Shown: positions 8,919 to 39,179 of the stretch, in pieces
Position numbering within the stretch: position 1 is the stretch's first letter
Layout of the letters: each line of letters starts with the position of its first letter
Origin: Marsupella aquatica
Lineage: Eukaryota; Plantae; Marchantiophyta
Direction: 5' to 3'
Assembly (NCBI GenBank): GCA_973895155.1
Contig: OZ316892.1
Span: 20,957,619 to 21,021,618 of the forward strand
DNA length: 64,000 nt
The notes under the pieces: model-generated
Database searches by the model: none
The model's input: the letters and a program-made list of their open reading frames with translations, nothing else
What the model was told of the DNA's origin: nothing
Position numbers and translations under genes: made by a program

Positions 8919-9249
8919 AAACTTAAACGAAAAATACCGGAAACTTTTCTGTTGTTAAACAAGAACTTGACACCAAAACGGGGTGTTTAGAAGATTGTAG
9001 TCAAGTCCAAAAAAAATGATGTAGAATAGCAACAGGCGCTCAAATACTAAGCCAAGGGGAACGATACATTTGAACCTGGGTTATACTAAAAAGCACAGGC
9101 ACGCACCAGGCGCTGCCATTGTAATTGTACAGAATGGAGCTCTAAACAAGAAACTCGGGCGCCTCCGTCGGACCGGTGAAGATACTAGCGTTGGGCGCTA
9201 GTTATATCGCCCAGTCAGACGGAGGCCGACGTGATAAATACGACGAACC

Positions 9250-10643
9250 CACCGGGACCATCGGACCGACGTTTAGGGTTTTACATCCAAAAGAGCCAAC
9301 TCCAACCAATTCGCATAATTGAACGCCACCCCAAAATCCACAAAGTCTTGCGATACAAATTTTTTTTAGTAAGATGGTAGCGCCAGGCGCTTACAAAAGA
9401 TCAAAGTGATCCGCATAACCACACTGTAAATGGAAGGTATGAAAGTTTCAAAAAGCTACGCGCATCCGACGCCTCTCGCTTAAAATGGCCGAACAGTAAA
9501 CTAGTGCTAGACACTTCACCGAACTCCACACAATCGATAATCAAAATGGCTACATCTAACGAGAAGATTTCTAAATTCCGGTCGAGTCCCGACGAAGTTT
9601 TCATCACATTCAAAAAAACTTGAGCGCTATGGGCACCATAGTCTTAGAGACCAACGCTAGCGCCGGGCGCTAGTCCGCTCATTGGTCGATGAGCCACATT
9701 CATCGTTCACTCCAGCATTCAATCGGGCTCTATCTGGAATGAAACCGTGCTCACGGTTCCTCATAAACGCCATCGACGGAACTCACTCATCACTGGTTTG
9801 GGGAAACACGCCAGGAATGGTCGTGTTCTGGAAATCAACACGGCCAAGTTCTTCCTGTTTCCTCATCTCATCCTCCCGAGTTGGACTGTAAGGAGGAGGT
9901 GGCCAGTGAATCGTAAACCGCTCTACAAATCTCCTAGGCGAAGAATCCCTCTGCCATGGGATCAGATTGTCACTAGGACTAATGGCTTCGTCTTGGGGGA
10001 GACTAAAACAATTGTGGAAAGCACTTGTCTCCGACCATTCAGGCTGCTCAGTTTCTGGAACCGAGCCCTCCTCCGAAATGATTGTGGTGTGTCTTTGAAA
10101 AGAGGCCACGGAGATTCTCCTCGGGTTATTCATGGTATGACACCTCTAGGCAGCGGATGGCAGATTCAAAGATATAGTTGTCAATACGACCCCGGTCAGC
10201 GAAAGAGCTCGAAGATTATCGAAAGTGGGAACAAAAACCACTAAAGTAGTAGCAAAACTAGGCAGTCGGGATGTAATCTCCCAAGTATTATAAGCAAACC
10301 CGTTCGACCTGGATACGCCCATCGTAATGAGGGAGGGGGTGGAGGTTGCATCCTCAAAGTCCCCAAACTACTGGTTCAACATGGAACGATCACTCCCATC
10401 TCACATGATAGTTGCGACGTTTACCTTCGTCTCCATTCAGAAACGATCGACCAAAACCAGTATTGGAATCCCGAAATGTTTCAAGCATCCAAAGTCCCAT
10501 TGTGACATCAAGTGACCGTTTGGATGAGAAAAATCCGGTACCAGATCACATGCGAGTCGCGACAGGCCGAACGAACTTAGAACGGGACAAAAGATTACCT
10601 TGAAACTTCCATTGACGTCATCCAGAGCGTACGGGAGAATCAT
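9250..10643 (-). pseudogene. Unidentified, decayed multi-exon coding region within the palindrome-marked element
   Basis: Coding-like minus-strand segments (10643-10437, 10133-9783, 9613-9401) are separated by stops and AT-rich palindrome-containing spacers. No recognisable domain. Confidence 0.35.
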
Positions 10644-11639
10644 TGTAAGATTGCCTTGACCGTCATACAGTTATAGTAGCGCCCGGCGCTAATATTACAA
10701 TATTAAAATGTTTACGTTACTAACAGAAGGAACAAACAAAATAGTTGTCGCTGACATGTGGAAAACACTTAACGAACAATGTTTCCGAAATATGTTTTAG
10801 TAGCGCCAGGCGCTAGCATAATGCAATTGAGAAATAGACCCAACATATACGGAGTTTCAGGTCACTTGTTTCCGACCACTCGGAATGTCCAGTCTTAGGA
10901 AGTAAACTGGTCCTCAAAAATGGACAAAAACAAAATTGAAAAATATGCGGGTATATGATCATGGACATTAAATTATGGTAGCACCAGGCGCTACCATAAA
11001 ATTAATCCGTGGACCCCCATGTTCATCCAAGGAATGTGTGTGTGATTAAGTGAAATCAATTTTAAGCAAGGCGGTAACCAACGGTTTTGAGTCTCCCGAT
11101 GGTGTTGGTGTGTGCTCGTACAAAACAAATGCTCAATAGATAGAGATTTATGAAACGGAAGGTTGAATGTGGAGGATTTGAGATTTTTGACAGGTTTTGT
11201 TTACACATTGGAGAAATCATGTTTCAACCATTCTTGATTGATTGTTTGTGAGTTACATTGAGCATTACCGTCACAAGACATACTGGAGCACAACACTCAG
11301 CTGTTGGCAAAAGAAAGCTTGTCGAATCGGTGGGAAGAACACACAAAACGAATGAGCCATCACTTCACACAAAATATTTGTAGTTATTTTTATTTAAGAA
11401 AGTTATGGTGTGAGGGGAAGACCAACAATTGTTTCTTTGACATAGAGGCTGCATTTGGCATCACCCTATGTTCAAAGTGAGCTTTAGTTGAAGTCTATCT
11501 AAGAGATGCGAACAATTCAAGCCGGAAAGCAAGCATTGTCGACAAGCGATGGCAACGTAATCAAAGAAATCAATTTGTAGAGGCTAAGTCTATGACGGTG
11601 ACGAGATTGTGATATTTCTTAATCGAGAAAGTGTTTTAA

Positions 11640-12060
11640 ATGAACCTCAAATTGACAAATTTTGTCAAGTTCCATATGAGTTTTTATATTTCTTTGCCTT
11701 TCCAATGAGTGTGAGTATAAGAAATTTTGATCATGACTTCATGAATTCTTTTAGCTTTCCAACATTGACTCCAACATTAACAAATTTCATCTCAGATTTT
11801 GTCACGGTACTAAAGAGATCAGGAGGTTTTCAATCTCTTTAGCTTTCTAATGTGTGACATTGAGATTATTTGTCAAGAAATAGAGAGATCATTAGTATCT
11901 AAATTTCTCTAGCTTTCCAATGATCTTAACATTGAAAGATTTTGTCAAGACATTACTAAAGAGGTCACAAGTTTCTAAATCCTGATCTTGAGTTTTCCCA
12001 TGAATCACACATTGGCAGATTTTATCAAGTACTAAAGAGATTTATTATTTAGTTTTACAA
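11640..12060. repeat. Degenerate AT-rich tandem repeats (~65-75 bp)
   Basis: Recurring attttgtcaag...actaaagag...tagctttccaatg blocks. Confidence 0.55.
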
Positions 12061-12587
12061 TGTGAAGCCAAAGGGGTTTTAAATATGTACATTTCTATCG
12101 ATTGGTTTTTTCAAACTTGCAAACAATTTAAAAATACAAGCATTTTGATATAAAACATTGATATATCTTTGACAAACATCAAAATGGTAACTTTATTTTA
12201 CTAAATGTCATCTCTTCCTTTGTATTTTGTTTTTTTACCTTTAATATTTACGGCATGGCGCCCCAAAAATTACATTGCTTTTGCCACAAATAGGAATGTG
12301 CACGTTTGTTATTGTTAAAAGTAGGATCATTCCTGTTTGTGGCTGGTTGTGGTGATGTGGCACAACCTCATGGCAAAAAATTTGCAAGAGACTCCTAATG
12401 GGGGTCCGTAAACATTGCAATATAGAGAACATAATAAAATAAAGATACACCACAAAAATATCCAATGTATCGAATACATTTGAATAAACAATGTTTCCAG
12501 GTTACATACCAGTAGCGCCCGACGCTAGTATAACTTCAGTGTATATAAATCCCAAAATACCCTTTCGAGGCAAATCAATCTGAGAAT

Positions 12588-15500
12588 TCTGATTCACTTG
12601 ACTCGGACCTGTCGGTGGATTCTGCCTCCATGTCTAAAAATTTGTTCTCGGCCATATCATCAACATATCGACTACGAATAAATTTTCTATCAGACCCTCT
12701 CCTTAATCTCAAACCTTTATGCTCCCAATGGAGGGTCCGCACACTATCAGTTCGTCTAGCAATATTCTCAGCATAGGAAGGTAGTACAAATGGTTTCTCG
12801 GGAGTTTTAATATATCGCCTAGCTACTTTCCTTCTGAGTTGGAAACGCCGGCAAAGATTCCAGTCTGACCTGAGGACGAGAAGTTTAGGGTTTTATGTCA
12901 ACGCCAAGAATATTTTAAAAAATGAAAAGAAAAATGATAAATCGAAGAGAGAATAAGGTAATCTACTAAAAAACCGGGTTTACTTAAGAGCTTACTCTGA
13001 AGCTTCTTACTCAAAAGAGTCTCCGCTGTCACTCCCTCCATGAGATCCTGGATCTTCTTCGGTAAGAGACACTTTGGGAATGTTAGGATCCTCCTCTTCT
13101 TCCCCCTCTTCTGTCTCATCCTCATCTTCAGAATCAAAATTTAAGACAGACTTCAGTTTGTCTATCTTTCGTTTTGAAATTGAAGACTTTGGAGGGGCTT
13201 TGGGCTCAGACTCTTTTGGAGTAAGAAGATCCAGAAATACCTTAGAAGCAGTTTCAACAAACTCCTTCCTATTCTCGAGTCCAATTACAAATCGACCACA
13301 ATTATCACCTGCAACAAATGTACTCCCCGAACCTACAGTCCAATCCAGAACAATATCTTCTGGACACGTAATTAGTTCCAACACAGACTGCATGAATCCT
13401 GGATGTAGTCTAGCATTCCCGGCAAATTTAAGCTCTGGAGTTGTATCAACCTTCGCGAAGGGAAGTCCAATCAGATTTGTAATGGAAGGATCCTCTGTTT
13501 TTGAAAGGGGTTTGAACTTAGGATCTTTTGGGACTTTCACCTTGGATGATATCCACGAAAATACATCCAAACGTAAAGTGAATACCTGAAAAGGGAACAA
13601 AATAGAGGAAGGACCCTCAGATTACAATAGCGTCGGGCGCTAGCAAATAATCCAAAAAATCACGTTGAATAGTTTACCTGAAATAAGGTCAAATAAAAAA
13701 AGAAAGTAATACATAATATGAATAGCGCTAGAAAAAGGATCAACAAAATTACCTGTAAATCAGACTTCGCTTTGTACATTGGGAACCCCATGACGACATT
13801 ATGTGTACATAGACACTGAAATTTCTTGGACTCTTGACAAGCGGAGATGACCTGCAAAATTTGATCATACTCCCCCGTATGGAGTATCGCAATAATTCCG
13901 TCATCCAACAAAAAAGGATCCATTGCCCGGAAAAAGGATCGGGGTAGGGTACAGTCGGGGATGTTCCATTTAGGGACCTTTCTGTCAAACAAAGTCGGTT
14001 TTAGCCCAGTTGGCAAGTAAATAAAACCAGCGTCAACACCAAAAGGTCTTTGCTTCCCACCCCTCACCACTCCTTTCAGCCGGCATCCAGATTTGATCAG
14101 GTCTTTCCCCCACTTTTCGGCATCATTTACCCATTCCGGCTTGTCCTCCTTATTAAACACACTATCCACAAGTTCACTGACACTTGTCTCAACGAAACAA
14201 TGACGAGACGACTTGGCTTTAAAATCCCCAACATCACGTTGGAGCCCAGTGACAGCCTGAGAATCCCGTTCTGATTGTCCAGCATCTCGAGTCCTTCTGC
14301 TTTTCTTTTTTGTACTGGTCGCATCGACTGGGACAATCGATTTCCCAGAATTAATAGGTGTAAGTGGATCTGGCAAAGCGCCAGTATTTGCTTCTAACGC
14401 TTTTGGGGTAACCTTCGTATCATCTGTGCCATCTGCATCTGACTTCTTTTGACCTATGAACATATTGCAAAGAATGTGGGATTAGGGCCTTCAAGCAAAC
14501 ACTGATGAAGATTGAAACACAAGAATGGCAGCGCCGGGCGCTAGCAAACATTTGAAAAAAAGATTGAAAACTTACGTTTCTTTCCGGATCGCGTGGAGGC
14601 ACTTGGCACTGCAGTGTCTATTTTAACTTTCCCTCGTGGCTTGCGGCTCCTATCTACATGGACAACTACTGTCTCACAGATTGTCTGTAACTCCGTAGAA
14701 GATTTATCAACGTCGCTAAGGAGACCTTGCTTCATCTCAAAAACAATGTTGGGAAGGATCTGCGACTTTGCAAGTTTCAGAAACCAATCCTTCTCCACTT
14801 CATCAAAGGGTGAATCCTATTTGTCTGTGTCAAGGTACCATGGGCAGTGAATTCTTTCCCACTCGGACATTTCCCTTGGGGGTAGTTTACCCTTGGCAGG
14901 ATACATCGAGTATAAGTCACAAACAAGATCTCCCTCCTTTACAGTAATCCACTTGTGAAATGCGGCTGGATACGCCCAAAGAGCATCCGGGGAATGAATT
15001 TCCATCCAAATGTAGAAACGATACAAATACCTCTTGGCCCTCTTCTGATTTTTCTCGGTATATACCTCTTTATCAAGGTATCTTGATGGCCACATGGTGT
15101 TGAAGAACTTTGCCTTCACAAGATCTCCATACCTTCGGAATTCACTTGAAATTACTTCAATCAGATTTTCTACCGAGTCACACCCTGACTAATCAACCGG
15201 TAGCGTTTCAATCGCTGCAAAAATTGCCGAGTGTAGCATCCCAATTGCAATTCCCTCGACGGTATTCCATGTTTGCCATGTGTGGCACCACTGCTTCACT
15301 GGATCATCGTTCACACTTGAAGGGTGGAAGAATTGTTTTCTCAACTCTGGAGTACAGCGAGCAACGAGCAATGTACACCTCAATTTTTGATCAAGCGCCA
15401 AAACTGCAGTAAAGAGTCTGGCACCGTCCATAACTGTGCAAACAACCAAATCTGGTTTTTCTCTCGCTTGTTTTTCTCTGTCAAAACATACATCTCTGCA

Positions 15501-16345
15501 CAGGTACCTAGAAAATCTTCAAACTCAGGACTAAGAAGAGGAGTGATTTTGGACGTTTTCGTGGACCAATCTTTAGTAGACTCTTTCAACATGAGCGATT
15601 GCCACTTTGTGATGTCATCAGCCGACCAAGGATTGCCTTGACTTGCTGCCAGTGCCATGTCCATCTTGAACTGGTTAGTGTAAGCTTTAATTTTGTTTTC
15701 GCATAAAATATAGACTAGAGCTTCTAGAGGCATTTTTCTTGTGTACCAAGAATGTTTTCGAGTCTTCTGTTTGATATACTCAAACTTTGCATAATTGGCG
15801 CTGTCAATGATAGACTTGTAGTGCTCTAGATCGTGAGAAAGAATCCTCCGGATTCTGTCTGCGTCAAGGATCCACGACGGTTCAACAACGGCCTGCCCTA
15901 ACCTGCAATAGGCCAAGTTTTCAATTATTAGCGTCGGGCGCTAGCTTAACTTAAACACTCAATTAGCCTATAAACATTGTATTATTCTATAAACACTCCA
16001 TAAACACTGTATTTATGTAATAACCAAGTATTGCGGAAATTGTTAATTACAAGCTAGGGCAAAAAACGTACTGGTTCACAGTGTGCATAGCCGCCTCAAT
16101 CTGAATTTGCGAAGCTTTGTCACCCTTGAAAATTGTGCAGAGAACTCTGGGATGATACTTGACGTTGTCAGGATTTTCCTTTGTGACCATCGTCCACGAG
16201 TAAAGTCGATGATTCCCGTCGAACACTGAGAACATTTTGTCTTTCAAGATCATAAAGGCAGGATCTGCCTCGCACTCCAGCTCAAACTTCTCGTTCTCAG
16301 CAACCCAAATTGCATCCCAACTCTCCCTGATCTCTTCAGTGCAGA
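12588..16345 (-). pseudogene. ParB/Srx-like + N4/N6 DNA-methyltransferase-like fusion gene, 3' part (exons ~16345-16072, 15902-14576, 14453-13753, 13585-~13010, ~12870-12588)
   Basis: MFSVFDGNHRLYSW (ParB DGxHR box). C-terminal VDAGFIYLPTG...FFRAMDPFLLDDGIIAILH...LELITCPEDIVLDWTVGSGSTFVAGDNCGRFVIGLE follows beta-class amino-MTase motif order (IV...X-I-II). One frameshift (~15440) and in-frame TAG stops at ~15189 and ~14817. Confidence 0.75.
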
Positions 16346-16369
16346 CACTAGTAGAAAACAATGTATTTT

Positions 16370-17075
16370 ATGACCAAAACAATGACTATTAATCAGGTCT
16401 TTTTAACAAAACAATGACGCAATTGTTCTCGTCTTTCCAGACACGTCACAACGGACATTTTGGTCACGGTCCTTTTGGACAAATGACGCTAAAAACATGT
16501 GGTCATTTCATACTATCCTAAATGACCGTTTTTATGATATGGTCATAAATGTTGAACGGTCCAAAATGACGACACAAATCACCATCGACGGTCAATTGCC
16601 GTTGACCGTCGATGGTCTCCGTACCCAATCACACAACGACACGTGGCAATAAAAAAACTAATAACATTGGTCATTTTGGACAGTCCAAAATGACGTACAT
16701 TATATAACAAATCAAATAGTGACACGTGGTTCAAAGAGGATTCACCATTTGGCAATATATTTGGGTCATTCTGGACGTGTCCAAAATGACTACAGTATAA
16801 ACAAGTCATATTGAGACACGTGGTTCAATTGGGAGAAGACACGTAAAGATACACATTAGTCATTAATGACATGTCTTGAATGACATAAAGTGAGTCATAG
16901 TGGACTTGTTTATAATGACCATGAGAAAGGTCATTGTATATGTCATTCTTTGAATCATTTAGTCTATGTCTTTAATGACCAGAGTTGAGTCATATTGGTC
17001 ACAAAGATAGTTGTGAATAATGACCATTACATCAGTCATTCTAGCTAGTCATTTAGTCATTCAAGCCAATCATTC
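16370..17075. repeat. CACTA left subterminal repeat region (dense AATGAC/GTCATT motifs)
   Basis: Dozens of atgac/gtcat motifs in both orientations next to the TIR, as is typical of TnpA-binding subterminal regions. Confidence 0.8.
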
Positions 17076-17428
17076 AGACGAAGTATTCAATGATTTGGAG
17101 AAATTCAAATTTAAGTGATCATGATAGATAAAACTTGATGTCAATCAAAAATCATATATTACAAAGCCATTCAATAGAGTTGCTAAATGAAAACTTAAAG
17201 AAACATTCGATATATATCACAAATCCAATTGATATTCATACAAGATACCTTCATAAGTCTCACGGTAAATATTGAACTCAATGCAAATTTATGAAACAAA
17301 ATTACATTGACATCAATAATATTAGATTGTCAATTGTTACAACCTGACATACCAATCACTCTGCATGTTTATAGAAAAACAGAGTTGTCATTCTATCATG
17401 TCTATTGTTTCTTGATAGAGTGCTATTT

Positions 17429-20400
17429 CTATTGCTTCTTAAGCAATCTAGAGTTCCATAGGGCATTCATCCCTTTCACATCAGATAATTTAGACTGGTT
17501 CTCCCCTGAATTGGCAAATGGCAATGCCACATCTACAAACACTTCAATCACACGCACTCGCAAGAAAGGGCTTTCAAAATCTGCACAATGAAACTTATCT
17601 TCTCCTGGCAGCCCTGTCACCTCACCTTCTGCCACTATCATGGAATTGTCCACAACGCTCTTCATCTTCACCAAATCTCCTCTTGCAAACTGTGAACAAC
17701 ACATTTTGTTAAAAATGCAATAAACAGAAATTGAAAGATAGAAGAACACTCAAATCAAACACACATTTACCTTTGCAACGGGGTTAGGAGACTGCATTGG
17801 TTTCTTCTGTGCAGGTGATGCATTTGCTGAGGATCCTTTCTTCCTTTTCTTCTTTCCCTTTCTAGTTGATGGAGTGTCATCCTGTTCACTTGGAATGGGA
17901 GTTTCTTTTGGCAACTCAGATGATTCTGGGGTTACATCTGGTGTCAACTGAGTCGACTTATCCTCTGGCAACTGAAAGACATCTGAAATGGCTTCTTTGG
18001 GCAACTTAGATGGCAAAAGGTTCACTTCCAATTCAGTTTGCTTTAGAGTACTGTTAGCTGTGTCAGTTGGTCTTCCCTGCGACACAGGAGGCTCCCCTAA
18101 AGATGCTGTCATAAAACACACACAAAAGAAATGCATAAACAAACATGTATACACCAGCAACATATAATCACACTAAAAACATGCAAGAACATTATAAACA
18201 TGCAATGACATATACACATCACAATAATTACATTGAATGGACAGTGTATACATGATAGAGAATTTTACCTTCATTATCGCCTGAAAAAGTAAGAGATCGC
18301 TTTCTACTACCTTGTTTGGTAGTTGTAGTCAACTTACTGTGACTAGGCACAACTGTTGGAACTTGTGCATTACTGGGGTGATGTGCCATCCACGTAGTCA
18401 TCATGTTTGTCAACTCCCTCACAGTGCCTTTCAACTCAGCGACATCCAATTTCACAGCCCCAATGGCAGTGATCTCTTCTTTTGAATGTGGGGTCTGTAA
18501 ATGAACCACAAACCAACACAACAGTCTCACTGTCAAACTTACAAACGACACAACACTGGCTCTGTCAAATGGAGAATGATGTACAAATCAAATTGGTATG
18601 ACAATACTCACAGCTGATCCATGTCTGTTTCCTTGCCCCAGTAAGCTAGCACTTTTACCCTCCCCACTTGCCAATGATGGGCTCACCTTTGCTCCCACAA
18701 AACTACCAGTCTGACCTTCTGCACTTGCCAATGATGGGCTCATTGTCACCTTTGGCAATGAACCCTGACTACCATGGTTTTCTTTCAGGTCAGATATACC
18801 TGGGCTTGATCCTCTCTTCTGCTTCTGTTCAAACACACAATGAATGAGAAATCACAGAGTTTGTTTTCATCAAGATTCACAAACAAGACAGAATTGATAG
18901 TGAAAATGATAGACAATTTACCATTCTCTTTGCTGCTGCAGCATGCCCTCCCCTTCCAAAGTGAGAGGTATCTTGCACTCGTGCTCTTTTATCAGTCATC
19001 TGTTTACTCAAAGATATCAATGCTGGACTGGTAAAATGAGATACCAAAGCTGCCCATTTCTTTGGATCAACACCAGATGGCCCAAGTTTGGTTGGATCCT
19101 CATTGCAAACTTTCTTCCAATAAACATGCATTTTATGGCGCTCTCTCTTCAATATGCCACGACAATGACTCTGGAATTTGGTGTTAATAAATTCCCCACC
19201 CACATACTCCCACTCAGCTGCCATGTTATTCCACACTGTGGTTGTATGAACTTGTGGATGATCAGTCCATTTTGGCTTTGATACATCAAAGACTCTGAGT
19301 ACGTTGCCACGAAGTTCCTCCAGCCAGTATTGTTTGTTGCCATCAGAATCATCAATATCATTGTCATAAATCTGCATTTCATAGACAATGTCAGATCATA
19401 ACTCTGGAATTTATGCAGAGTCCAGGTTTTATACACACAACAACAGAGAGGATCAGATTTGTCTAAATCTACAAACAAGTACAATACTCACTTTAATGTG
19501 TTTGGGCACCTCTCCGCAATCCCTTCGTTGTTTGGCAGTATTATCAAACTGCTTCTTAGCATGCCTTCGTTCCCTGCGCATCTCAGAGGCCCCTCCTGCA
19601 ATGCACACACATGCATTCAATCAAAAAATATGTACATGATTGAAAAGTTGAGCAAATGTACTTGCATATGCAACACGAGCAGATTGTGTATTACCTGAAG
19701 ATCCTCTGGAATGTAGTACATCAGATTGACCTGATCTGCCTTCAGATGCTGATGGAACCACTAAACAAACACACAACACCAAAGCACTTCAATTAATTTC
19801 ATTTCCAAGTAGAATATCAACTTCCAAACACACCTGAAAAGTAGAACAGTACAATCCACTCACTTTCATATAAGAGTCCAGTGTCTGGGTCTTTCCAACA
19901 TCTCACTAGCCCACCTCCACCAGGCCCAGTCTTCTTAGGACCACGATTTTGTTTCTGTACCTACATCATGGACAACGTAAGCATATCAACATATAATTTG
20001 AAAAAGGGACAAGGATCCCTTCCTATTAGGATGATGAAGTTCAAGCATTACCTGTTGTGCACTCTCTGGTTCTGACCCTCCAATGTCAGAATCCTCAGTG
20101 TCATACTCAGAAGGAGAACCATAGCCATCATCACCAAACTCTGCCATGTTCACCTTGGTAACTTCTGATAGTCTAGAGCTCCTCCTCTTTGGCAATGTTT
20201 CAGTTGAAGTACCTTTCACCAAAGCAGGCTTTCCTCTCTCTCGTTGTACATGTGTGGTTGGGCCTCTAAGGAACAAAGCAATCATCAACATACACCAATG
20301 CAGATCAAACATACATGCAAAATGAATCTACAACACCATAACACTAGTACTTATGTACAGGATCCATACTAGTATGAGACCAATCTGGAATATGAAAACA

Positions 20401-20604
20401 GAACATGAACCTGACAACTCCATCTACTGAATCAAATTTGCAATAGACATATCAACACACACATCAGCTTGCAGTCTGGCCCCAGTCCTAGATCACGCAT
20501 AATTCTGACATTATGCTCTATGTTCCGATTTCGGGCCTCCTCATAAGGATTCACAGAATGTGACAACCCTTGCAATCTTCCTTTCACAGGCTGCATTCAC
20601 CAAC
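17429..20604 (-). CDS. CACTA TnpA/Ptta-like accessory protein, many exons (boundaries approximate)
   Basis: N-terminal YEEARNRNIEHNVRIMRDLGL motif (~20550). Central KKWAALVSHFTS...SKQMTDKRARVQDTSHFGRGG resembles the Ptta/En/Spm domain. C-terminal VAEGEV...LRVRVIEV..DVALPF..ALW resembles the Tnp1/En/Spm-like domain. Numerous GT-AG junctions. Confidence 0.75.
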
Positions 20605-20694
20605 TGCACAAATGGATAAACCATTAGTCTGATTTCATAAATAGTCCATACATGTAGTCCATCTATGGACTTCACACACCTAGCTAAAACCTAT

Positions 20695-25285: not shown

Positions 25286-25945
25286 TCAAATCCAAGATAT
25301 GTGGCTCCTAGCAGGAGTGCCTAGTGTAGGGTCAATGTCATGGTCAGGACAGTAAAACATCCCCTTCTTGGGCTGCCCATGCGCTGAGTGATCCCAAATT
25401 GTTCGATCATGGGCAAATCCCCTCTGCTGGATAAACAGCAGGCAGTCTTTGTGCCATGCCTTAGGACACCTCATGCACTGAACCAAAAAGCCATTAGCCC
25501 CATCATTGGGCCCCTGTCCACAAGTAAGACAAATATGGAGTCCACATGATGCTGTGCCAGGAACCAAACACTGCCGACAGTAAAACCGGGCACAGAGAGA
25601 GTCTGGACATTTTCTTACCTCTTCACCAATTTTTCCAGACACATGGCACTTAAAGCAAGAATGTTCCTCATTCTTGCAATCAACACAAAGCCATTCTCCA
25701 ACATGGCCATCAGCGAGGGATATAGTTGGGCATAGCCATTGCTGACCCAAAGGACAGGAAACATTCTTATGGAAATGTCGGTGGCAAGGCCCATCACAAA
25801 CAATGAGATCCCCTCCCTCATCACAAATCGCACATACATGTGGACTATTCTGGTTAATCTCAATGTCTGAATATAAGGACAATTGAGGTGCTTGAGAGGA
25901 TTCACCTCTGCAACGATTCATGGCCTTCTGCTTATTGCGAGCCAT
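25286..25945 (-). CDS. Stand-alone EDM2/NSD-type PHD-finger (Cys/His-rich) protein carried inside the CACTA element
   Basis: CAICDEGGDLIVCDGPCHRHFH...CVDCKNEEHSCFKC...CARFYC...CGLHICLTC...CMRCPKAWHKDCL...RTIW...FYCPDHDIDPTLGTPARSHISW; single open exon. Confidence 0.85.
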   Translation of the reverse strand: MARNKQKAMNRCRGESSQAPQLSLYSDIEINQNSPHVCAICDEGGDLIVCDGPCHRHFHKNVSCPLGQQWLCPTISLADGHVGEWLCVDCKNEEHSCFKCHVSGKIGEEVRKCPDSLCARFYCRQCLVPGTASCGLHICLTCGQGPNDGANGFLVQCMRCPKAWHKDCLLFIQQRGFAHDRTIWDHSAHGQPKKGMFYCPDHDIDPTLGTPARSHISWI

Positions 25946-28283: not shown

Positions 28284-28462
28284 GCTGATTGCAACTCGTC
28301 GCTGATTTGCAGCTCGTCCTCCGCTCCTCACCCGCAGCTTATCGCCGATTGTAGGTCGTCCTCCGCTCCTCGCCCGCAGCTTATCGCCGATTGCAGCTCA
28401 TCCTCCGCTCCTCACCCGCAGCTTATCGCCGATTGCAGCTCATCCTCCGCTCCTCACCCGCA
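28284..28462. repeat. 42-bp tandem repeat (~4 copies)
   Basis: gattgcagctc(g/a)tcctccgctcctcacccgcagcttatcgcc repeated head to tail. Confidence 0.85.
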
Positions 28463-29029
28463 ACAATGACAAATGTAAAGAAGCTATTGCCTTGACCCTA
28501 CAATCAGGCACTCCAAAGCCCGAATGTCCTCCAAAGCGCAGGGTCCTCCAAAGAAGCTCCCAAGTCCTACCGAGGTGCTCCGCCGACCGCGCGCAACAAG
28601 CTCAAAAACAATTGTAGCCTGAATGGCTTCGGGTCGGAGCTCCTCCTCTAAACCTTGCAAATGGTCACTAAAACAATGCCACGTCCAACGCTTCACTCAA
28701 ACAATGCCTCACCCAATGCTTGCCCGAACAATGCCTCGCCCAACGCTTCGAAGGGTGTCGAAGCTTGGTGGAATGGAGCACAACGCTGCGCAACCCTAAG
28801 CCCTTGCAATGTGCACACAAAGGCATGCCAAGAAATGAGCACATCGAGCGTTGCCCTCTCGATGTTTTTTCAGGAAAAAGGGCTCCTGTTGGTACGCAAG
28901 AACACTTAGCGGGAAAAACCTAATGCTAGACCCCTAAAGCCCGTAAAGGTAAGGTATTCTGTTGGATGGGGATGGTGGATATTGTGGGTCATTAATTAGG
29001 GTTATATTCTGACAATATCTCTCACATGT

Positions 29030-29220
29030 CTGGACCCCCCATAAGGCCCTAGGGAAGTTGAGACTAGGTTAATAACAATGTAAACCCCCCCCCCCATAAG
29101 GCCCTAGGGAAATACCAACTATAGAGGTTAATAACAAGGTCCGGACGCCCCCATAAGGCCCTAAGTAGGGAAGGCAAGGTTAATAACTCATAATGTCACG
29201 ACCCCCCCCATAAGGTCATG
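29030..29220. repeat. ~57-bp degenerate tandem repeat (4 copies) near the presumed CACTA promoter
   Basis: cccccataaggccctagg...ggttaataac repeated. Confidence 0.7.
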
Positions 29221-29779
29221 GCTGTTTGTGTAGGTGCCAACAAGAATGTTAAGGACCAATGTTATATATAAAAAATGATGCTAGCGATATAAAAGGTCCG
29301 ATATATGCCCGCGATATAAACCCATAACCCGCATGCATGAACACCATTTTGGACTACCTTATTGTCTCACCATATGATAGTGATACTCATCCAAATATTA
29401 GCATTTAATAGCTCTCCACTCCTGACTCAATTGAGAGAAACCCTCATTCATGACTCAAGCACAATTATAGGGTCCCTTACATGCTACATGACCACTACAT
29501 ATGAGGCTATGTTGTGTAAGAGTTTTTGAGAGCATTACACCAAAGCATTAATAAGTGAGCCTTCCCATGACTATATGACCTCCAATATGCCAACATTAAT
29601 GGCTTCCAATATGACAGCGTGAGTGACCCCACGTTTAGTCCTCAGATTGAAGCACCATTTAATTCACAAATGACCCAATGAACTCCCTTGTACCTCCAAA
29701 GAGAACCCCCCAATAGCCTTTGTAAAGACCACATTTCCAGTCATTTGGTACTTCTGACCTCTAGTATGACAACCAAGAT

Positions 29780-32700
29780 TACCCTAATTTGAGGTGTTTC
29801 CATTAATGACACACCATGAGGGACCTCTCTAATGACCACATATGCAGTCAATTGCTCCAAATGACCTCTAACTGACTACCAAAATGACCCTTATTGTAGT
29901 CATTGACATTAATGACACACATTATGTGAAAATGACCCAATGAAGAGTATACTACCTCTCGGAGTGCCCCTTTACAATTCCTTTGGAATTTAATAGAATA
30001 TATCCAAAATCCAAATATTGGCACAAACATGACATAGTTATATAGAAGGACATAGTCTTCCACTAGTATTGCACTATATACCTCTTGGAGAGACAAAAAC
30101 AATTTTTGTATGCATGCCTTAGGATGGTATGCATGCATGGTGACACTTTTGGCAAATCACTCCAAAGTTGTATGACTTGGGAGTGATTTCCCCAAGGTTG
30201 CATCATCCCTTAAGTAATTGCAAAAACATGGCTCCAAAGTGCTCATGGTGCAACTAGTGGTTGGAGAATAGTACGGTGGGTATAGTACCCCGCACCTTGT
30301 GGAGAGGTTGCCACCTTCATGTAGAGCCCCATGGCACACTAGGGCCACCTTAAGCTCCTAGACCCAAAAGGGTCATTTCTGATGGTACGTAATGACACCA
30401 TGAGGGACCTCTATAATGACCCCATATGGAGTCATTTGGCACAAATGACTTCCAAAAGGACTGCCAAAATGACCCTCACTGCAGTCTTTGGCATTAATGA
30501 CACACTATTCCTCCAAAATGACCCAATGAAGATTACAACACCTACTCACAATGCCTTAAGTCTATTCATATGCAAAATGGAGTATTCCCCATCCAAACAC
30601 CGGCACAAACATGACACAATTACATCACAAGATGACAACCTTCCATTGGTGTTGCGCTACTTCTTGGAGAGACAAAAAATGGCTCCATTTGCGCTTGGAT
30701 ACGGTGGTATGCATCCATGGTGACACTTTTGGCAAATCACTCCAAAGTTGTATGACTTGGGAGTGATTTCCCCAAGGTGCATCATGCCTTAAGTAAATGC
30801 AAAAACATGTGTCCAAAGTGTTCATGGCACAACTAGTGGTTGGACGATGATGAGTATAGTGTCCCGCACCTAGTGGAGGGGGTTCTCACCTCTATGTGGG
30901 GCCCCATGGCACTCTAGGGCCCACCTCCAGCCCCTAGCCCCAAACTGGTCATTTGTGCTTCTGCTTAATGATTGCACAAGGGACCCCTCAAATGACCACA
31001 AATCCAGTCATTTGACTTATGTGACAGCCCATATGACAGATTTAATGACCCTACTTGTAGTCATTGGTATTTATGACACCAATTTTTTCAGAAATGACTC
31101 AATGAAGATTACACTACCTTCTTGAGTGCCCCATCACTATTCATTTGCAAAATAGAATATTCCCCATCCAAACACCGGCACAAACATGACACAATTACAT
31201 GGAACGACAACAGCCTTGCACTACTTCTTGCAGAGACCAAAAAAATGGCTTCATTTCCTTTAGATAGGATGGTATGCATCAATGGTGACACTTTTGGCAA
31301 ATCACTCCAAAGTCGTACGACTTGGGAGTGATTTCCCCAAGATTATATCATCCCTTAAGTAAACACAAAAACATGGCTCCAAACTGCTAATGGTGCAACT
31401 AGTGGTTGGAGAATAGTAATTATAGTATTTGACACCTAGTGGAGGGGTTGCGAGCTCTATGTGGTGCCACATGGCACTCTAGGGCCCACCTCCAGCCCTT
31501 AGCTCCAAATTGGTCATTCATGCTTGTCTTCAATGACTGCACTAGAGACCCCTCAAATGACAACAAGTCCAGTCATTTGAATTATATGACATCCCATATG
31601 ACCAATTCAATGACCCTACTTGTGGTCATTGACACTTATGACATGACTCTGTTAAAAAATGACCCAAAGAAGGTCCTAGCACCGCCAGAGAGAGCCCGCT
31701 CTACATTCCTTGCAAAAATGGAATAATCGTATACCTTTAAACATCAGACACATCATAGAGGGAAGCACCACTACCACACCCATTCCATTGGTGTTGCGCT
31801 ACCTCTTGGAGAGACAAAAAAGGGCTTCATTTGCGTTTGGAATAGTGGTATGCATCCATGGTGACACTTTTGGCAAATCACTCCAAAGTCATACGACTTG
31901 GGAGTGATTTCCCCAAAGGTGCATCATGCCTTAAGTAAACGCAAAAACATGTGTCCAAGGTGTTTATGTCGCAACTAGTGGTTGGACAATGATGAGTATA
32001 GTGTCCCGCACGCAATGGAGGGGTTATCACCTCTATGTGGGGTCACATGGCACTCTAGGGCCCACCTCCAGCCCCTAGCCCCAAACTGGTCATTTGTGCT
32101 TTTCCTTAATGACTGCATAAGGGACCCCTCAAATGACCACAAATCCAGTCATTAGACTGATATGACTTTCCATATGACAGTTTTAATGACCCTGCTTTTA
32201 GTCATTGATATTTATGACGGTCCATTGCTCACATATGACCCAATAAAGGCCCTGGTACCTCCAAAGAGAGCCCGCTTTAGATTCCTTGCAAGGTTGGAAT
32301 ATTCCTCTTCCCTAAACCCGCACCCACACCATACAGGGAAGCACGACTCCCCTGCCCATTCCATTGGTGCAGCACCACCTCTTGGAGAACCCAAAAACAA
32401 CTTTTATTTGCCTTTGTATGTGATGGTGTGCATGCATGGCAACACTTTTGGCAAATCACTCCAAAGTCGTACGACTTGGGAGTGATTTCCCCAAAGGTGC
32501 ATCATGCCTTAAGGAAACACAAAAACTTGTGTCCAAGGTGTTTATGTCGCAACTAGTGGTTGGACAATGATGAGTATAGTGTCCCGCACGCAATGGAGGG
32601 GTTCTCACCTCTATGTGGGGCCCATGGCACTCTAGGGCCCACCTCAAGCCCCTAGCCCCAAAATGGTCATTTGTGCTTTTCCTTAATGACTACATAAGGG

Positions 32701-34390
32701 ACCCCTCAAATGACCACAAATCCAGTCATTAGACTGATATGACTCTCCATATGACAATTTTAATGACCCTACTTTTAGTCATTGGCATTTATGACGGGCC
32801 ATTGCTCACATATGACCCAATAAAGGCCCTAGTACCTCCAAAGAGAGCCAGCTTTAGATTCCTTGCAAGGTTGGAATATTCCTCTTCCCTAAATCTGCAC
32901 CCACACCATACCCTAAAAGCATGACTCCCCTGCCCATTCCATTTGGGCAGCACTACCTCTTGGAGAACCCAAAAACAACTTTTATTTGCCTTTGTATGTG
33001 ATGGTGTGCATGCATGGCAACACTTTTGGAAAATCACTCCAAAGTCGTACGACTTGGGAGTGATTTCCCCAAAGGTGCATCATGCCTTAAGGAAACACAA
33101 AAACATGTGTCCAAAGTGTTTATGTCGCAACTAGTGGTTGGACAATGATGAGTATAGTGTCCCGCACCTCGTGGAGGGGTTCTCACCTCTATGTGGGGCC
33201 CCATGGCACTCTAGGGCGCACCTCCAGCCCCTAGCCCCAAACTGGTCATTTGTGCTTTTCCTTAATGACTGCATGAGGGACCCCTCAAATGACAATAATT
33301 CAGGTCATTCCACTTATATGACATCCAATGTGACCATTTTAATGACCTTTCTTGTAGTAATTGGCATTTATGACGGGCCATTGCTCACATATGACCCAAT
33401 AAAGGCCCTAGTACCTCCAAAGAGAGCCAGCTTTAGATTCCTTGCAAGGTTGGAATATTCCCAAACCCTAATCCCACAGCCACACCATGCTAAGAAGCAC
33501 GACTCCCCTGCCCATTCCATTCGTGCAGCACTACCTCTTGGAGAACCAAAAAACAGGTTTTATTTGCCTTTGGATGTGATGGTATACATCCATGGTTGCA
33601 CTTTTGGCAAATCACTCCAAAGTCGTACGACTTGGGAGTGATTTCCCCAAAGGTGCATCATGCCTTAAGGAAACACAAAAACATGTGCCCAAAGTGTTTA
33701 TGTCGCAACTAGTGGTTGGACAATGATGAGTATAGTGTCCCGCACCTAGTGGAGGGGTTCTCACCTCTATGTGGGGCCCATGGCACTCTAGGGCCCACCT
33801 CAAGCCCCTAGCCCCAAAATGGTCATTTGTGCTTTTCCTTAATGACTACATAAGGGACCCCTCAAATGACCACAAATCCAGTCATTAGACTGATATGACT
33901 CTCCATATGACAATTTTAATGACCCTACTTTTAGTCATTGGCATTTATGACGGGCCATTGCTCACATATGACCCAATAAAGGCCCTAGTACCTCCAAAGA
34001 GAGCTAGCTTTAGATTCCTTGCAAGGTTGGAATATTCCTCTTCCCTAAACCTGCACCCACACCATACTGAGAATGCACCCACACCATACTGAGAAGCATT
34101 ACTCCCCTGCCCATTCCATTGGGGCAGCACTACCTCTTGGAGAACCAAAAAACAACTTTTATTTGCCTTTGGATGTGATGGTATGCATGCATTTATTTGC
34201 AAATTAAAATATTCCCCGTCCAAACACCGGCACAAACATGACACAATTACAACAAAGCATGACAACCTTCCATTGGTATTGCCCTACTTCTTGGAGAGAC
34301 AAAAAGGTTTCATTTGCCCCATGGATACGATAGTATGCGCGCATCCATATATGATGACACTTCTGGAAAATCACTCCAAAGGTGTATGAC
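29780..34390. repeat. ~578-bp tandem array (~8 units) inside the CACTA element
   Basis: Anchor cacttttggcaaatcactccaaagt recurs near 30144, 30724, 31289, 31865, 32443, 33021, 33599 and, degenerate, 34358. Confidence 0.92.
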
Positions 34391-34469
34391 TCTACAATTA
34401 TGATAGGTGTCTGGAATGACTATTGAGTATTTTAATCTTCATATCTCTTGGGTTCTTTAATGACTCTAT

Positions 34470-35345
34470 AAGTAGTCATTTATGTAATAAGTCCATAATG
34501 ACTGTATGTTATTGTAAACATTGATATATCCTGATTTTTAGATTGCCCTATATTTAGTCATTTATGCGACAAGTCCATAATGACAGTATGTTGTTGAAAA
34601 CACCGATATATCCTAATTTCAAGATTGACTGTGGAGTTAGTCATTTATGAGAAAAGTCCATAATGACGGTATGTTCTTGTAAACACTGATATGTCCTAAT
34701 TTCAAGATTGACCCTAGAGTTAGTCATTTATGGCAGAAGTCCATAATGACAATATGTTGTGTAAACACTGATATATTCTCATTTTCAGATTGACCCTAAA
34801 TTTTGTCATTTATGAGAGAAGTCCATAATGACGGTATGTTCTTGTAAACACTAATATGTCCTAATTTCAAGATTGACCCTAGAGTTAGTCATTTATGGCA
34901 GAAGTCCATAATGACAATATGTTGTTGTAAACACTGATATATTCTCATTTTCAGATTGACCCTAAATTTTGTCATTTAACACCGTTGGTTAAAATGACGA
35001 TAATACATTTTTTGTCATTTATCACCGTTGTCCAAAATGATGCAAATAGATTTTTGGTCATTTCAGTCATTGTCCAGAGTGACTATAATGTTGCTAAACA
35101 CTGATTTATCATTGTTGTTATTAATTGTGTCATTTAAGACATGTGTCTAAATTGACCATTTAGGGAAATTGGGTCATTTTGGTCGCATCAGTCATTATAG
35201 ACATTATACAAAATGACAAAAAAATTAACATTTTGTCATTTCAGTCTATTGGTCATTGTGGACAGTCATTCCCCCGTCATTCTTTTTGTGTCATTAAAAC
35301 TTTTGGTCATTTATTCATCTCTGTCATTGGGTGATTGGTCATAAA
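34470..35345. repeat. CACTA right subterminal region including ~89-bp tandem repeats
   Basis: tagtcatttatg..aagtccataatgac..gtaaacactgatat unit repeated ~6 times, then dense gtcat motifs up to the TIR. Confidence 0.85.
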
Positions 35346-35366
35346 GGGCCCTGTTTTCTTCTAGTG

Positions 35367-35856
35367 AGATTTGCTCCACACCATCCGAATCGGTCGGCTG
35401 TACAAAAAACTGCATTCCTATCCTGGGATTGTATCCACTACTTCGGAATGAGTCTTTCAATTTCTCAATTGACGCACTCTCCTTCTGTAACGTCCAAACA
35501 ACCTCCATGTGGACCAGGCGACAAAGCGGAATCCGTGGAGGTTCCTTCTCATTCCCCCAGAAATCTTTCCCAAACGACATGATGTGTTTGGAGATGACTT
35601 CATCCATTCCAAGTCCTACCTCGTTGCCCTCTCCCAAAGCGTAATCGGTCATGCCATCAATCTCCATTCTGCCCCTTCTTGGCTTTTGGCTCGGGAGTGT
35701 TGTGTTCGACGAAGGAATCGCTCCGCTCGATCTTGTAACATGATGCGAATAGAATGCCCCACAGAATGAAGATTGTGTACTCTCACAATGACCCTGATCT
35801 CCCTCCGGAACCATGGTATACCCTCTTGGAGAGCTTGGAGCGCTTGAAGGTTGCAT
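35367..35856 (-). pseudogene. ParB-MTase-like fusion gene, 5' part (start of ParB/Srx-like domain)
   Basis: RIPLCRLVHMEVVWTLQ..SIEKLKDSFRSSGY..FFVQ. After removing the CACTA and one TSD copy it reads GVEQI-CTEEIRESWD in frame with the 16.3-kb segment. Confidence 0.75.
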
Positions 35857-36754
35857 CGTGGAGCCCCAAAGTTTGCGAAGGTGCTTGTACGACACAGAGC
35901 CAGTGTCTATTCTCACGCTCTGAACAAATTACCGTACAAAAAGAACAAGCAGGAAACCTTTAAAACTTGGGCGGTTGACATCATGGGAGGTAGATCGATG
36001 CAAAAGAAAAGGATCTCACTCACCAATCATGACAAGGACAAGTGGCCGATACTATTTAGAATGAGTATATGTAACGCCTCTTTTAAACTGGGGTAAGGGA
36101 GGAGCGATGATCTGTAGGCTAGTGTTAAATAAGTCAACTGCAAAAAGCGTGAAACAATGAGTACGTTCATGCACTTTACCGTTAGATATAACCGTTGGGA
36201 TAATACAAGTCATTCCTTACGATACTAGCGCCAGGCGCTAGCATTCAAACACCACTAAAATAACATCATTAACATTGATGTCAGCCATGAATTTATGTCA
36301 GCGTCGGGCGCTAACTATATTTGATACGTGTATATTTCCTATAAACAACAATTATATCAAACAAACTCAATGTCTTTTGACATTTTTGTTATTCCAATAA
36401 AATTAATAGAGTTTTTCACCTTTAAATGGAAGTGGATTAATGATAGCGCATGGCGCTAGCATATGAAGTTTGGTTTTTAGGTTTTAATTCCATGACTTAT
36501 TTATGGTAGCGCCGGGCGCTAGTAAATATCTGATCATGTTTCTCAAACTATATTATTGATGTTACCAGTACGTAGTGACGTTGGCAAAACGACAAACAAC
36601 ATTTATGTTTCTACATTTTACGACTAGTACCCGTTTTGTCGTTCACAAACGATAATCTTATGGAGTTTGTTACGAATTCACTTAACTTAAGTCGGGTTAT
36701 GTTCTCCTATTCTCTCATTTTCTCTGTTTGTCAATTCGGGATTATTGTTCCGCA

Positions 36755-39178
36755 ATGTCTAATTCAGTTGTGCTTCTGCATTCTGGAACTGGAGAGATTA
36801 TACGCATTCCTTTAGGTTCTTCCGATACGTACAAACAGGTTAGTGAGAACTATCTTTGTGGAAGATTTGACATTGGCATCAATGACATTCTTTCCATCAA
36901 ACCTGTTGATGCTTCTGGAGATGAGGCTGGTGACGCATTGTTTGATATCGACGATGGAGTCAGATTTTGGCAACTGAACGCTGGGAAGAGATACTATATC
37001 AATCTTCGAGATAATTCTGTTACGAATGAAATTACTCCAGTTCCAGTCATTCACCTTTCCGATAGTGATGAGGAGGATGTTGCCGTTCATTCTCAAAAAT
37101 TGCCCAATCCGGGAACTTCGGTCAAGATGGAAGGTCAGTTTCCTTCCGAGACACACGTTGCGGGGGGTGTGCGCAGACACACATTGCGGGGGGTGTTGCG
37201 GGAGGTATTGTCTACCGTCGAAGTGCGATGGATGCTATTCTCAAATCAACTGGCCACAGTGAACTGTCGCGATTCATCCGAACATGTGATTTCAGGCATG
37301 AGCAGGTGAATTGCCTCCCAAGAAAATACAATGGAAACATTGTATTTGAATTGCCTCCCGCAGAAGGTCTTCTTTCAAAAGGTTCAAGACTCCGTGACAT
37401 GGATCGGCCGAAAGACTGCTACTTCTGGACTCAAATATTTCCAACCTCTACGAATGTACAACCGAAAAAGTTCTGGGAATTTGGTAAAGTGACGTGTACA
37501 GGAGCACTAGAATGTCAAAATCAGAAGTGTGATTATCTTTTGCGGAAGAAACAAAGAAATTGTAAAGCTTGGGATGGGACACCCAAACTTGCGGGGCCAC
37601 ATACCATAGGAAAGATGATTGACGAGGGTGGTGTAGTTTGTCACTATTGCCAACAATTACCCTTTTGTACTGAAGCATGTCCTGCAATGCTTTTTTATAT
37701 GTACCCTCAACTACTTCTAGATGAGGATACTTGTAAGCATATGTCCCGTCTTGCTGTGCATGTCGGAACTCATGCTCATCCCAGTCGAAAAGTTTTTTCT
37801 CGTGGTGCTGAAAAGATTGCTCACAACTTCATAAAGAAACAACATGAAGCTACGCCGTGTGCCACACCATCGGGTCTGAAGAACGCTATAACTGGATCTT
37901 TAAGGAAGGCTCTTTGTGTGTCCAACAATGACATTGGTGAATTGGAGGAAAGAGAAATTTGGGAGTCATTAATGGTAGTTTCGACCCCTCAAAAGTTCGC
38001 ATCTCTTTTTTGAAGCTTTCGGCAAGACCAAAAAGGCAAAGGTGAGTTGGAGTTTCTTGTTGAAATGCAGAAATGCATAATCTTTCCCTTTCTACAACGT
38101 TACATGCTCCCAGGTCAAGGCTGTAAAGAGGATAGGCCATATATTTTCAAAATGACTGTAAAAGGGCACGGATCTGGAGTTGATTTGTTGCGCCAAATGC
38201 AGCCTGGAGGTCCATTGGAAGGGGCATGGGTCAGTTTTGATGTGATGAGGAGGATGACAAAAGATTGGATAACTTTTAGCGCACATGTTTATGATCACAA
38301 TTATCGTGCTCTTTGCACAATTTTCACATGTGAGTTGAAAGCAAAAGATTCAGAGTCTTTAGAGAAAGCCTAGAAATTGATGATTGAGGTTTGCCATGAA
38401 AATGGGTTGGATAATGTTGTGATCCATGGATTCATGGCTGACAATGCCCAAGCTGGATGGAATGTTGTTCGGAATGTGTTTTTCGGAGGACATCCTAACC
38501 CAGAAAAGGAGCGATCGGATGCATTTCACTTCTATCAATCGTTTCATCGTCACTCAATTGAAGGTGTATTGGAAGAAAAATGAGATGAGCATCGGAAGAT
38601 GTGGGACTCTTTAAGGAACGCGTCCACATTTCTTGGAGCGTACAGAATTTCAAGGGATATCGATGTATGGTGGAGATCTAGGAATTGTGTTCCAGGGAAG
38701 CTTCGAATGCTCCAAGGTTGGTTGGCGTGGTGGGTGGTCCGATGGCGTCAATGGGGAAATTTCATTCGTTTGGTGAGTTTCAACATCCAGTAACCACTCG
38801 AACTCATGCTAGCGCTTGGCGCTACCATTATTTTCAGTTAGTGTGGTCTCGTAGGTTTTGTTCATCATTATCTGGTTTTTGATACTAGCGCCCGGCGCTA
38901 GTATTAATGGACCACTTGTTTCTTAAATTTACAAAAATTTAGTTTGAATGTTGCTAGCGCCAGGTGTTGTCATTGATTTTATGTACATGTGGCTAATGCA
39001 TATTTCCTAAACTCTGCTCCTATGGTGGATGCAGAACAAAAGCGTGGAGGAAAGCGCTATGATTCCTAACTGTACTACTTCAGAGGCGGCGCATTCCATA
39101 ATGAAGGCTTGGCAAACTAAGAAAAAGGCTGGCCTATTCGAAGCATGTGAGATGGATATAAGTTTGCCTTATATATAA
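36755..39178 (+). pseudogene. Divergent Mutator-like DDE transposase with Cys/His-rich (GCM/WRKY-like) N-terminal domain; decayed and 3'-truncated
   Basis: CTGALECQNQKC...CHYC..C...C...HVGTHAHP, then WVSFDVMRR (D1), GFMADNAQAGWN (D2), DAFHF (CxxH position) and, after intron 38773-39034, PNCTTSEAAHS (E). One frameshift (~37180) and three in-frame stops (38011, 38371, 38581). Confidence 0.75.
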
Positions 39179-39179
39179 A

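Follow-up and report, generated by a model that had tools for sequence, protein, structure and literature searches.

The 64-kb stretch of contig OZ316892.1 from the liverwort Marsupella aquatica that was analysed here (the window) contains a transposable element that spans approximately positions 8832–39165 and amounts to ∼ 9.9 kb once nested insertions are removed. The element carries two divergent genes, one on the minus strand for a predicted ParB-like/methyltransferase-like protein and one on the plus strand for a putative Mutator-like transposase, and a palindrome recurs throughout its non-coding DNA. The palindrome, which is real and not a product of chance, is the subject of this analysis.

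The element and its two genes

The stretch is covered by thousands of Logan contig pieces at 80–100% identity, and its summed depth is far above that of the flanks. As summed contig depth does not give the number of copies, no more is concluded than that the element belongs to a multi-copy family. The probable left end, followed by a short run of 7-bp repeats found with Tandem Repeats Finder (TRF), lies at 8832–8908, where depth rises (bin 8704–9004) and deep contigs start (8832 or 8838). Near 39165 other repeats truncate the transposase gene, which places the right end of the element outside the window; within the window no right end or target duplication matches the left end, and no matching pair of terminal repeats was found. 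Two younger insertions interrupt the element. A 19-kb CACTA transposon on the minus strand (16346–35366), with an AGA target duplication, splits the ParB-like domain, and a high-copy 1.4-kb repeat occupies 11000–12410, as judged from contigs that skip 10999–12410, loose contig ends at 11000 and a much higher summed depth. The 1.4-kb insertion is missing from other family copies. Both main genes are broken in this copy.

After removal of the CACTA transposon the minus-strand gene is predicted to comprise five coding blocks, with splice signals and phases read by eye. The 5′ part (35367–35856), whose start codon is uncertain, reads on in frame past the CACTA junction, as judged by eye, and has no family match. 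It is followed by the 3′ part of the ParB-like domain, which carries a DGNHR motif (16072–16345), and by a central exon (14576–15902) with one frameshift and two stops, in which no fold was recognised and no Pfam match rose above threshold. The N-terminal half of the methyltransferase is encoded at 13753–14453, and the last two predicted exons (13585–13011 and 12869–12573, together 12573–13585) encode the S-adenosylmethionine (SAM)-binding half of a beta-class amino-methyltransferase and an acidic tail.

The first-pass annotation had read this gene as a ParB–methyltransferase fusion. The assignment to the beta-class amino-methyltransferases was confirmed by a match to PF01555 (E=4.7e-8, positions 170–220) and by alignments to the Protein Data Bank (PDB) entries for DpnA, MboIIA and CcrM; in addition, the SAM-binding motifs X-I-II lie C-terminal to the catalytic half, as is the case in the beta class. 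Atlas methyltransferase clusters matched the N-terminal-half exon at 0.81–0.83, which is taken as a lead only, and folding of the methyltransferase exon from its single sequence gave a mean pLDDT of 44.5. The catalytic motif (D/S/N)PP(Y/F/W) is not present, and the motif IV slot, assigned by eye, reads YLPT in this copy. The ParB-like part of the earlier reading stands on weak but concordant matches, to a PHROG ParB-like family (E=0.03), phrog_5732 (E=1.7e-4), TIGR03187 (E=0.017) and Atlas ParB_N/DUF6551 clusters (0.92–0.94, with ParB_N on 11% of one cluster), all of which come from the 3′ half of the split domain; there was no Pfam match and no relevant PDB sequence match to this exon. The region after the ParB-like domain gave one weak match to a terminase small-subunit PHROG (E=8e-4). 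In each library 13–24 frames from the part of the element inside the window were scanned, and no ParA ATPase was found among them; nor did a Pfam family of the VANC type match any scanned frame. Searches with tblastn of the ParB exon against phages and of the methyltransferase exon against plasmids gave nothing useful, and word-indexed searches among longer proteins were blank, which is weak evidence.

The plus-strand gene (36755–39165, with an intron at 38773–39034) has a frameshift and three stops and is most plausibly a Mutator-like transposase with a GCM-type zinc domain and DDE and CxxH-like motifs, although it is not filed as a member of that group. No Pfam MULE match was obtained for window frames or in 26 scans of its relatives. 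The relatives number 185 at E≤0.001 among 1.84 billion proteins, and eight of the 20 looked up have a named source, Calypogeia fissa in one case and Riccia sorocarpa in seven. The DDE and CxxH-like motifs are visible by eye in their alignment. A model of one full-length relative, P0069 (mean pLDDT 66), has as its best structural match a GCM domain bound to DNA (1odh, prob 0.99, E=0.01), no match reaching E≤0.001. Four distant transposase loci of 1.7–4.5 kb, recovered in a metagenome scan, are without an accessory gene. The gene is truncated by nested high-copy AT-rich inverted-repeat elements, which occupy 39166–41820 and 51190–52330.

A possible third, decayed reading frame lies on the minus strand at 9663–10640 (five stops in 326 codons), opposite a stretch of the other strand (9693–10502) with one stop in 270 codons. 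Frames at 9663–10640 gave no Pfam match above threshold.

A 23-bp palindrome in the non-coding DNA of the element

The pattern TAGCGCC-N-GGCGCTA, searched with at most two mismatches over the whole window, gave 16 matches between 9186 and 38900, six of them exact, whereas in 100 dinucleotide-shuffled sequences the matches averaged 0.01 and never exceeded one. A 17th copy, at 38955, has three mismatches here and an intact core in other family copies. The first-pass annotation had reported about 17 copies of a 15-bp motif; the number and the coordinates are borne out, but the symmetric consensus is wider than 15 bp and, once symmetrised, reads ATRS-TAGCGCC-N-GGCGCTA-SYAT (23 bp, ∼ 31 bits in total). 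Position −1 is a purine in 34/34 half-sites and position −2 is T in 27/34. A 23-column matrix made from the 17 copies and scanned over the 64 kb scores them at 21.8–36.8 bits, a weak decayed site at 9101–9115 (four mismatches) at 14.0 bits and all other positions at 6.3 bits or below; as the matrix was fitted to the same 17 copies, all that can be read from this gap is that the window probably hides no others.

The centre base of the palindrome is free, no arm position varies more than the outer C (changed in 5/34 half-sites), and AGCG is the best-kept part. Complementarity between the flanks of one site amounts to 46 pairs, compared with 45.9 for flanks shuffled between sites (p=0.54). The flank symmetry is thus not copy-specific, which fits independent half-sites of a dimeric protein and not a hairpin; a hairpin or cruciform was rejected on these grounds. 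Paired or extended exact matches to the palindrome numbered zero in viral contigs and zero in the prokaryote genomes scanned.

Seven sites lie at 9.2–12.5 kb, namely site 1 (9186–9200, two mismatches), site 2 (9378–9392), sites 3, 4 and 5 (9658–9672, 10677–10691 and 10801–10815, all exact), site 6 (10979–10993) and site 7 (12513–12527), the last of which is ∼ 50 bp beyond the predicted stop of the ParB-methyltransferase gene. Three consecutive introns of that gene contain one site each, site 8 (13628–13642) in intron 13752–13586, site 9 (14529–14543) in intron 14575–14454 and site 10 (15929–15943) in intron 16071–15903. The divergent promoter region between the two genes holds four, site 11 (36226–36240, exact), site 12 (36299–36313), site 13 (36444–36458) and site 14 (36507–36521, exact), and the transposase intron holds three, site 15 (38810–38824), site 16 (38886–38900, exact) and site 17 (38955–38969). 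This is the placement that had been described earlier.

All 17 sites are therefore in non-coding DNA, which makes up 32–42% of the element (P ∼ 3e-7), and four of the five predicted introns have at least one. None was found in the 19-kb CACTA transposon, in the 1.4-kb insertion (∼ 11000–12410) or in ∼ 35 kb of flanks, so that within the window the motif does mark the element, as first proposed. Several sites cluster near the left end, and 11/17 (from 12513 onward) are more than 3 kb inside the element, in introns, the promoter region and a 3′ flank. The site-less intron of the ParB-methyltransferase gene is the predicted fourth (13010–12870). Tandem repeats cover a site in 0/62 TRF rows for this copy. 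Three of the sites are directly upstream of the minus-strand frame at 9663–10640, which is possibly a third gene of the element.

Other arrangements were considered for these positions and rejected. A branch-point role is at odds with site-to-3′-splice-site distances that differ between the three introns (∼ 26, 75 and 42 nt), helical phasing with the lack of a common period among 10 spacings, and an intron-making micro-transposon with the lack of shared ends. With regard to the introns themselves, that at 13586–13752 resembles two stacked intron-sized units, each with a GTAA start and a TTTCAG end, one of which contains the full site and the other a collapsed site (13723–13730) whose inner repeat is deleted. 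An AG|GT junction near 13678 could allow recursive splicing of this intron; a micro-exon at the same point was rejected, as direct splicing is in frame. The sole site-less intron of the window carries one telobox, at 12886.

Comparison with other family copies was made on variant tables for Logan contigs of four runs (two organisms, two studies), from which 80 of 2493 rows were available. Other copies carry the consensus letter at 36304, 36450, 38965 and 38967, that is, at four positions in three sites: C at 36304 restores an arm of site 12, C at 36450 makes site 13 exact, and C at 38965 and 38967, present in contigs of all four runs, belongs to the intact core of site 17. This indicates that the degeneration of these three sites is peculiar to this copy. 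Other copies also join 9674 back to 9255, a ∼ 450-bp unit being tandemly repeated there, and some have lost site 15 by a deletion (joint 38778–38882). Together, the tandem unit near 9.2–9.7 kb and the deletion show that sites are gained and lost.

Such turnover, which includes the deleted intron copy and the doubled intron unit with its collapsed site, speaks for an account in which the sites are neutral copies, whether micro-transposon remnants, hairpins or products of local duplication. However, beyond the 23 bp neither common flanking sequence nor terminal repeats nor target duplications were found around the sites, Rfam gave no match over 8800–39300, the pairing of the flanks is not copy-specific and constraint differs by position within the site. 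A neutral origin is for these reasons considered very unlikely.

The constraint is seen most clearly at the cytosines. Core CpG is changed at 2/68 positions, whereas the outer C is changed in 5/10 half-sites where it stands in a CCG context, against 0/24 elsewhere (p=9e-4) and against the core CpG (p=2e-4), the five changed outer-C sites possibly not being independent events. The inner C of CCG is changed in only 1/10 half-sites. Moreover, G>A at 10686 in site 4, which segregates among other copies, is the same kind of outer-C change. The retention of the core CpG alongside changes of the outer C indicates that the constraint is position-specific, and an AGCG that is constrained next to a CC that is tolerant speaks against CCNGG as the purpose of the site.

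The CCNGG at the centre of the palindrome had been suggested by the first-pass annotation as a methylation target. In such an account the sites would be plain substrates of the element's enzyme, of the type recognised by M.MvaI and M.BcnI, and would receive N4-methylcytosine (4mC). The presence of a beta-class amino-methyltransferase domain and the near-constancy of the inner C of CCG are compatible with it. On the other hand, the outer C is the most variable and AGCG the best-kept part, the centre is free, a 5-bp target needs no 23-bp consensus, and CCNGG elsewhere in the element is at chance level (18 seen, 19.3 expected). In addition, the motif IV slot reads YLPT and not the SPPY needed in the rotifer enzyme N4CMT according to the accessible text of PMC8885841. 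We regard the methyltransferase-target account as highly improbable, and this part of the earlier proposal is not supported.

Retention of CpG in the element and mutation of the dead copy

The CpG observed/expected ratio (o/e), computed with the sites masked, is 0.78 for the element overall and 0.94 for its non-coding DNA, compared with 0.32 for the CACTA transposon, 0.37 for the Mutator-like element (MULE) upstream and 0.64–0.68 for the flanks. At codon positions 3-1 the values are 0.60 for the element, 0.12 for the CACTA transposon, 0.14 for the MULE and 0.66 for two host genes. The comparison of the element with its neighbours gave Fisher p=1e-37 and 8e-11. As the CpGs of the element are retained, its lineage looks to have been spared from 5-methylcytosine (5mC) for a long time. 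The ratio also falls with distance from the sites, from 1.02 at <100 bp to 0.84 at 100–250 bp and ∼ 0.7 beyond, a gradient that is confounded with coding status.

The record of this copy since its inactivation was read from 50 of the 80 variant rows, after removal of 14 rows that lie beyond the element and 16 with mixed frequencies. Near-fixed C>T/G>A differences in this copy number 34, of which 13 are in CG and 14 in CHG context (27/34), against a background share of 18% for CG and 16% for CHG (together 33%). The dead copy has since been mutating mainly at the host-methylated contexts CG and CHG.

Candidate readers of the sites and comparison with known systems

With moderate confidence, and as judged from sequence, the sites are taken as likely recognition sequences of the ParB-like/methyltransferase-like protein that the element itself encodes; this protein would shield active copies from host 5mC silencing in the manner of VANC. 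A dimer would read the two half-sites, and of the two proteins of the element the ParB-like one, not the transposase, would be the binder. Once loaded at introns and promoters, and perhaps after spreading in the ParB manner, it might then protect the ∼ 10-kb body of the element, so that active copies would stay expressed and free of host cytosine methylation. The methyltransferase domain could either write 4mC or N6-methyladenine (6mA) or only bind, its catalytic motif being non-canonical here. A bolder form of the same idea, in which a ParB-like clamp loads at the 17 parS-like palindromes, slides over the element and either deposits a mark other than 5mC or keeps host methylation out, as in bacterial load-and-spread, is considered unlikely; it is with the same reserve that such a clamp may be said to give a land-plant transposon an epigenetic ‘self’ label of its own. 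The earlier proposal of a self-recognition system spread along the element thus keeps its central part, a motif resembling a protein-binding site throughout the non-coding DNA, and loses the part that concerned CCNGG methylation.

Several observations weigh against shielding by the ParB-like protein. The ParB identity, drawn from weak matches, is itself weak, and no helix-turn-helix was found after the ParB-like domain by Pfam or NCBIfam. The 27/34 changes in CG and CHG contexts suggest that the sites gave this copy no protection once it was dead. High CpG o/e occurs without sites, both in a LINE-like reverse transcriptase remnant recognised by eye at 60957–63560 (0.69) and in the four distant transposase loci (0.59–0.77, host backgrounds possibly differing), and CpG could also have been preserved if the element had arrived recently from a host with little methylation or had inserted in open chromatin. 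The confounding noted above could account for the distance gradient. The sites lie outside tandem repeats in this copy, unlike VANC targets. Finally, the transposase appears to have a DNA-binding domain of its own, of the GCM type, and, as described in bioRxiv 10.64898/2026.08.24.746577, a Mutator transposase can by itself demethylate the family to which it belongs.

The last two points bear on a distinct account, in which the GCM-type zinc domain of the transposase binds the sites, either for synapsis of the ends without long terminal inverted repeats (TIRs) or for anti-silencing. The match of P0069 to DNA-bound GCM agrees with this, as do the several sites near the left end. Moreover, WRKY-GCM1 domains are described as the DNA-binding domains of MULE transposases in the accessible text of PMC1702500, and the AtMu1c transposase alone hypomethylates and activates its own family (bioRxiv 10.64898/2026.08.24.746577). 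However, that same source places AtMu1c binding and hypomethylation at termini, whereas 11/17 sites here are more than 3 kb inside. The palindrome is also absent from the four distant transposase loci, including the intron of one of them (L002) that is equivalent to the three-site intron of the window. GCM domains bind non-palindromic sites as monomers. Binding by the transposase is accordingly viewed as unlikely, though it is the strongest of the rival accounts.

A host dimeric transcription or chromatin factor could also read the sites and keep the element open, with no involvement of the element's proteins. Enhancer-like use of this kind would fit the positions of the sites in promoters and introns, and L002 has telobox-type repeats in its equivalent intron (1880–1990) and its 3′ region (3550–3800), which we take to be a host-factor motif. 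By contrast, the ∼ 31 bits carried by the 23 bp are more than would be expected of a host factor, and no site lies beside host genes in the ∼ 35 kb of flanks. This account is held to be rather improbable.

The gene type and the self-binding hypothesis are already published for algal transposons, and with regard to green algae the authors of the Ectocarpus study refer to Iyer et al. 2011. The published systems are compared here as they are described in the accessible parts of their sources. In Ectocarpus Sola1-1_Ec32 a 1104-amino-acid protein with ParB-like and N4C/N6A methyltransferase parts is encoded opposite the transposase, and its authors suggest self-binding and self-modification (PMC12477816). 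The present element shares with it, by layout compared with description, a ParB-like and amino-methyltransferase combination in one gene opposite a transposase; the likeness is one of layout. Sola1-1_Ec32 is a giant DNA transposon of a brown alga with a Sola-1 transposase and a 282-bp TIR, whereas the present element is from a land plant and has a putative Mutator-like GCM transposase, and no internal binding site is reported for Sola1-1_Ec32 in the accessible text of PMC12477816. In Bostrychia Plavaka elements, tandem inverted-repeat arrays beside a ParB-oxygenase gene are proposed to be the element's own binding sites (bioRxiv 10.1101/2025.02.11.637652). As with Plavaka PAG2/PAG3, a ParB-like accessory protein is encoded beside inverted repeats and a PF01555 methylase is present in the element. 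However, Plavaka has ParB joined to a 2-oxoglutarate (2OG) oxygenase, and the methylase, which a different gene encodes, joined to SET, whereas here the ParB-like and methyltransferase parts share one gene; and the Plavaka repeats are tandem arrays by one gene, whereas here single palindromes are dispersed in introns and promoters of both. Iyer et al. 2016 describe ParB-linked methylases in algae, fungi and phages, the present layout not being among those in the accessible text.

With regard to self-recognition, the target of VANC21 in VANDAL21 is a 9-bp motif located in introns and between genes (PMC5735166). The present element resembles VANDAL/VANC in its putative Mutator-type character, its accessory gene, a short motif in introns and in intergenic and terminal non-coding DNA, and an apparent escape from 5mC. 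It differs in that VANC targets are 9-bp, non-palindromic, same-orientation tandem repeats and the site here is a 23-bp palindrome, and in that the accessory protein here has bacterial-type domains. The VANC analogy drawn by the first-pass annotation therefore gains independent support from CpG retention, although no VANC homologue was among the frames scanned. The combination of a multi-copy palindrome and an adjacently encoded ParB-like protein recalls bacterial ParB/parS; the methyltransferase-like fusion, the longer site with its odd centre, and the failure to find helix-turn-helix or ParA in the frames scanned do not. Taken together, VANC-type self-recognition built from ParB-like parts appears partly supported, and the status of parS or of methylation target is not claimed for the sites.

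Among eukaryotic 4mC writers, rotifer N4CMT (PMC8885841) and Marchantia DN4MT1 (bioRxiv 10.1101/2021.02.12.428880) are encoded by host genes and have an SPPY catalytic motif, which is necessary in N4CMT (PMC8885841). The protein predicted here is, like these, a bacterial-type beta-class amino-methyltransferase encoded with introns; N4CMT and DN4MT1 are host proteins that mark transposons or the genome, whereas the present one is element-borne, fused to a ParB-like domain and has YLPT. A search of the literature that left most subscription journals uncovered found no such element, dispersed intron-borne site or CpG signature in a bryophyte or other land plant.

Two papers from 2025, in their accessible parts without a defined site or a test, speculate that giant algal transposons are bound and modified by their own ParB-fused accessory proteins. 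The present element supplies a sharp 23-bp candidate site, a position-wise tolerance profile and a genomic hint of escape from CpG decay, which together make the self-binding idea testable. If it were true, it would amount to a second, independently built anti-silencing strategy beside VANC/TnpA, made of bacterial parts, and would offer a sequence-specific tool for shielding plant DNA from silencing.

The remaining features of the window are mostly further mobile elements. A canonical MULE, with MULE and SWIM domains and strong CpG depletion, lies directly to the left of the element at 4000–8800. Within the nested CACTA transposon, the frame at 25286–25957 encodes NSD-like PHD fingers (PF23004 and PF22908), consistent with a chromatin-reader accessory gene, and the region 29600–34400 contains a ∼ 577-bp tandem array of 7–9 copies, each with a 52-bp palindrome, together with an 83-bp subterminal array. 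To the right of the element, an intronless frame for a MAK-like protein kinase, recognised by eye at 43237–44295, is possibly a retrogene, and two tandem genes at 46300–49000, which are 94% alike, are presumably germin-like on account of their sequence motifs.

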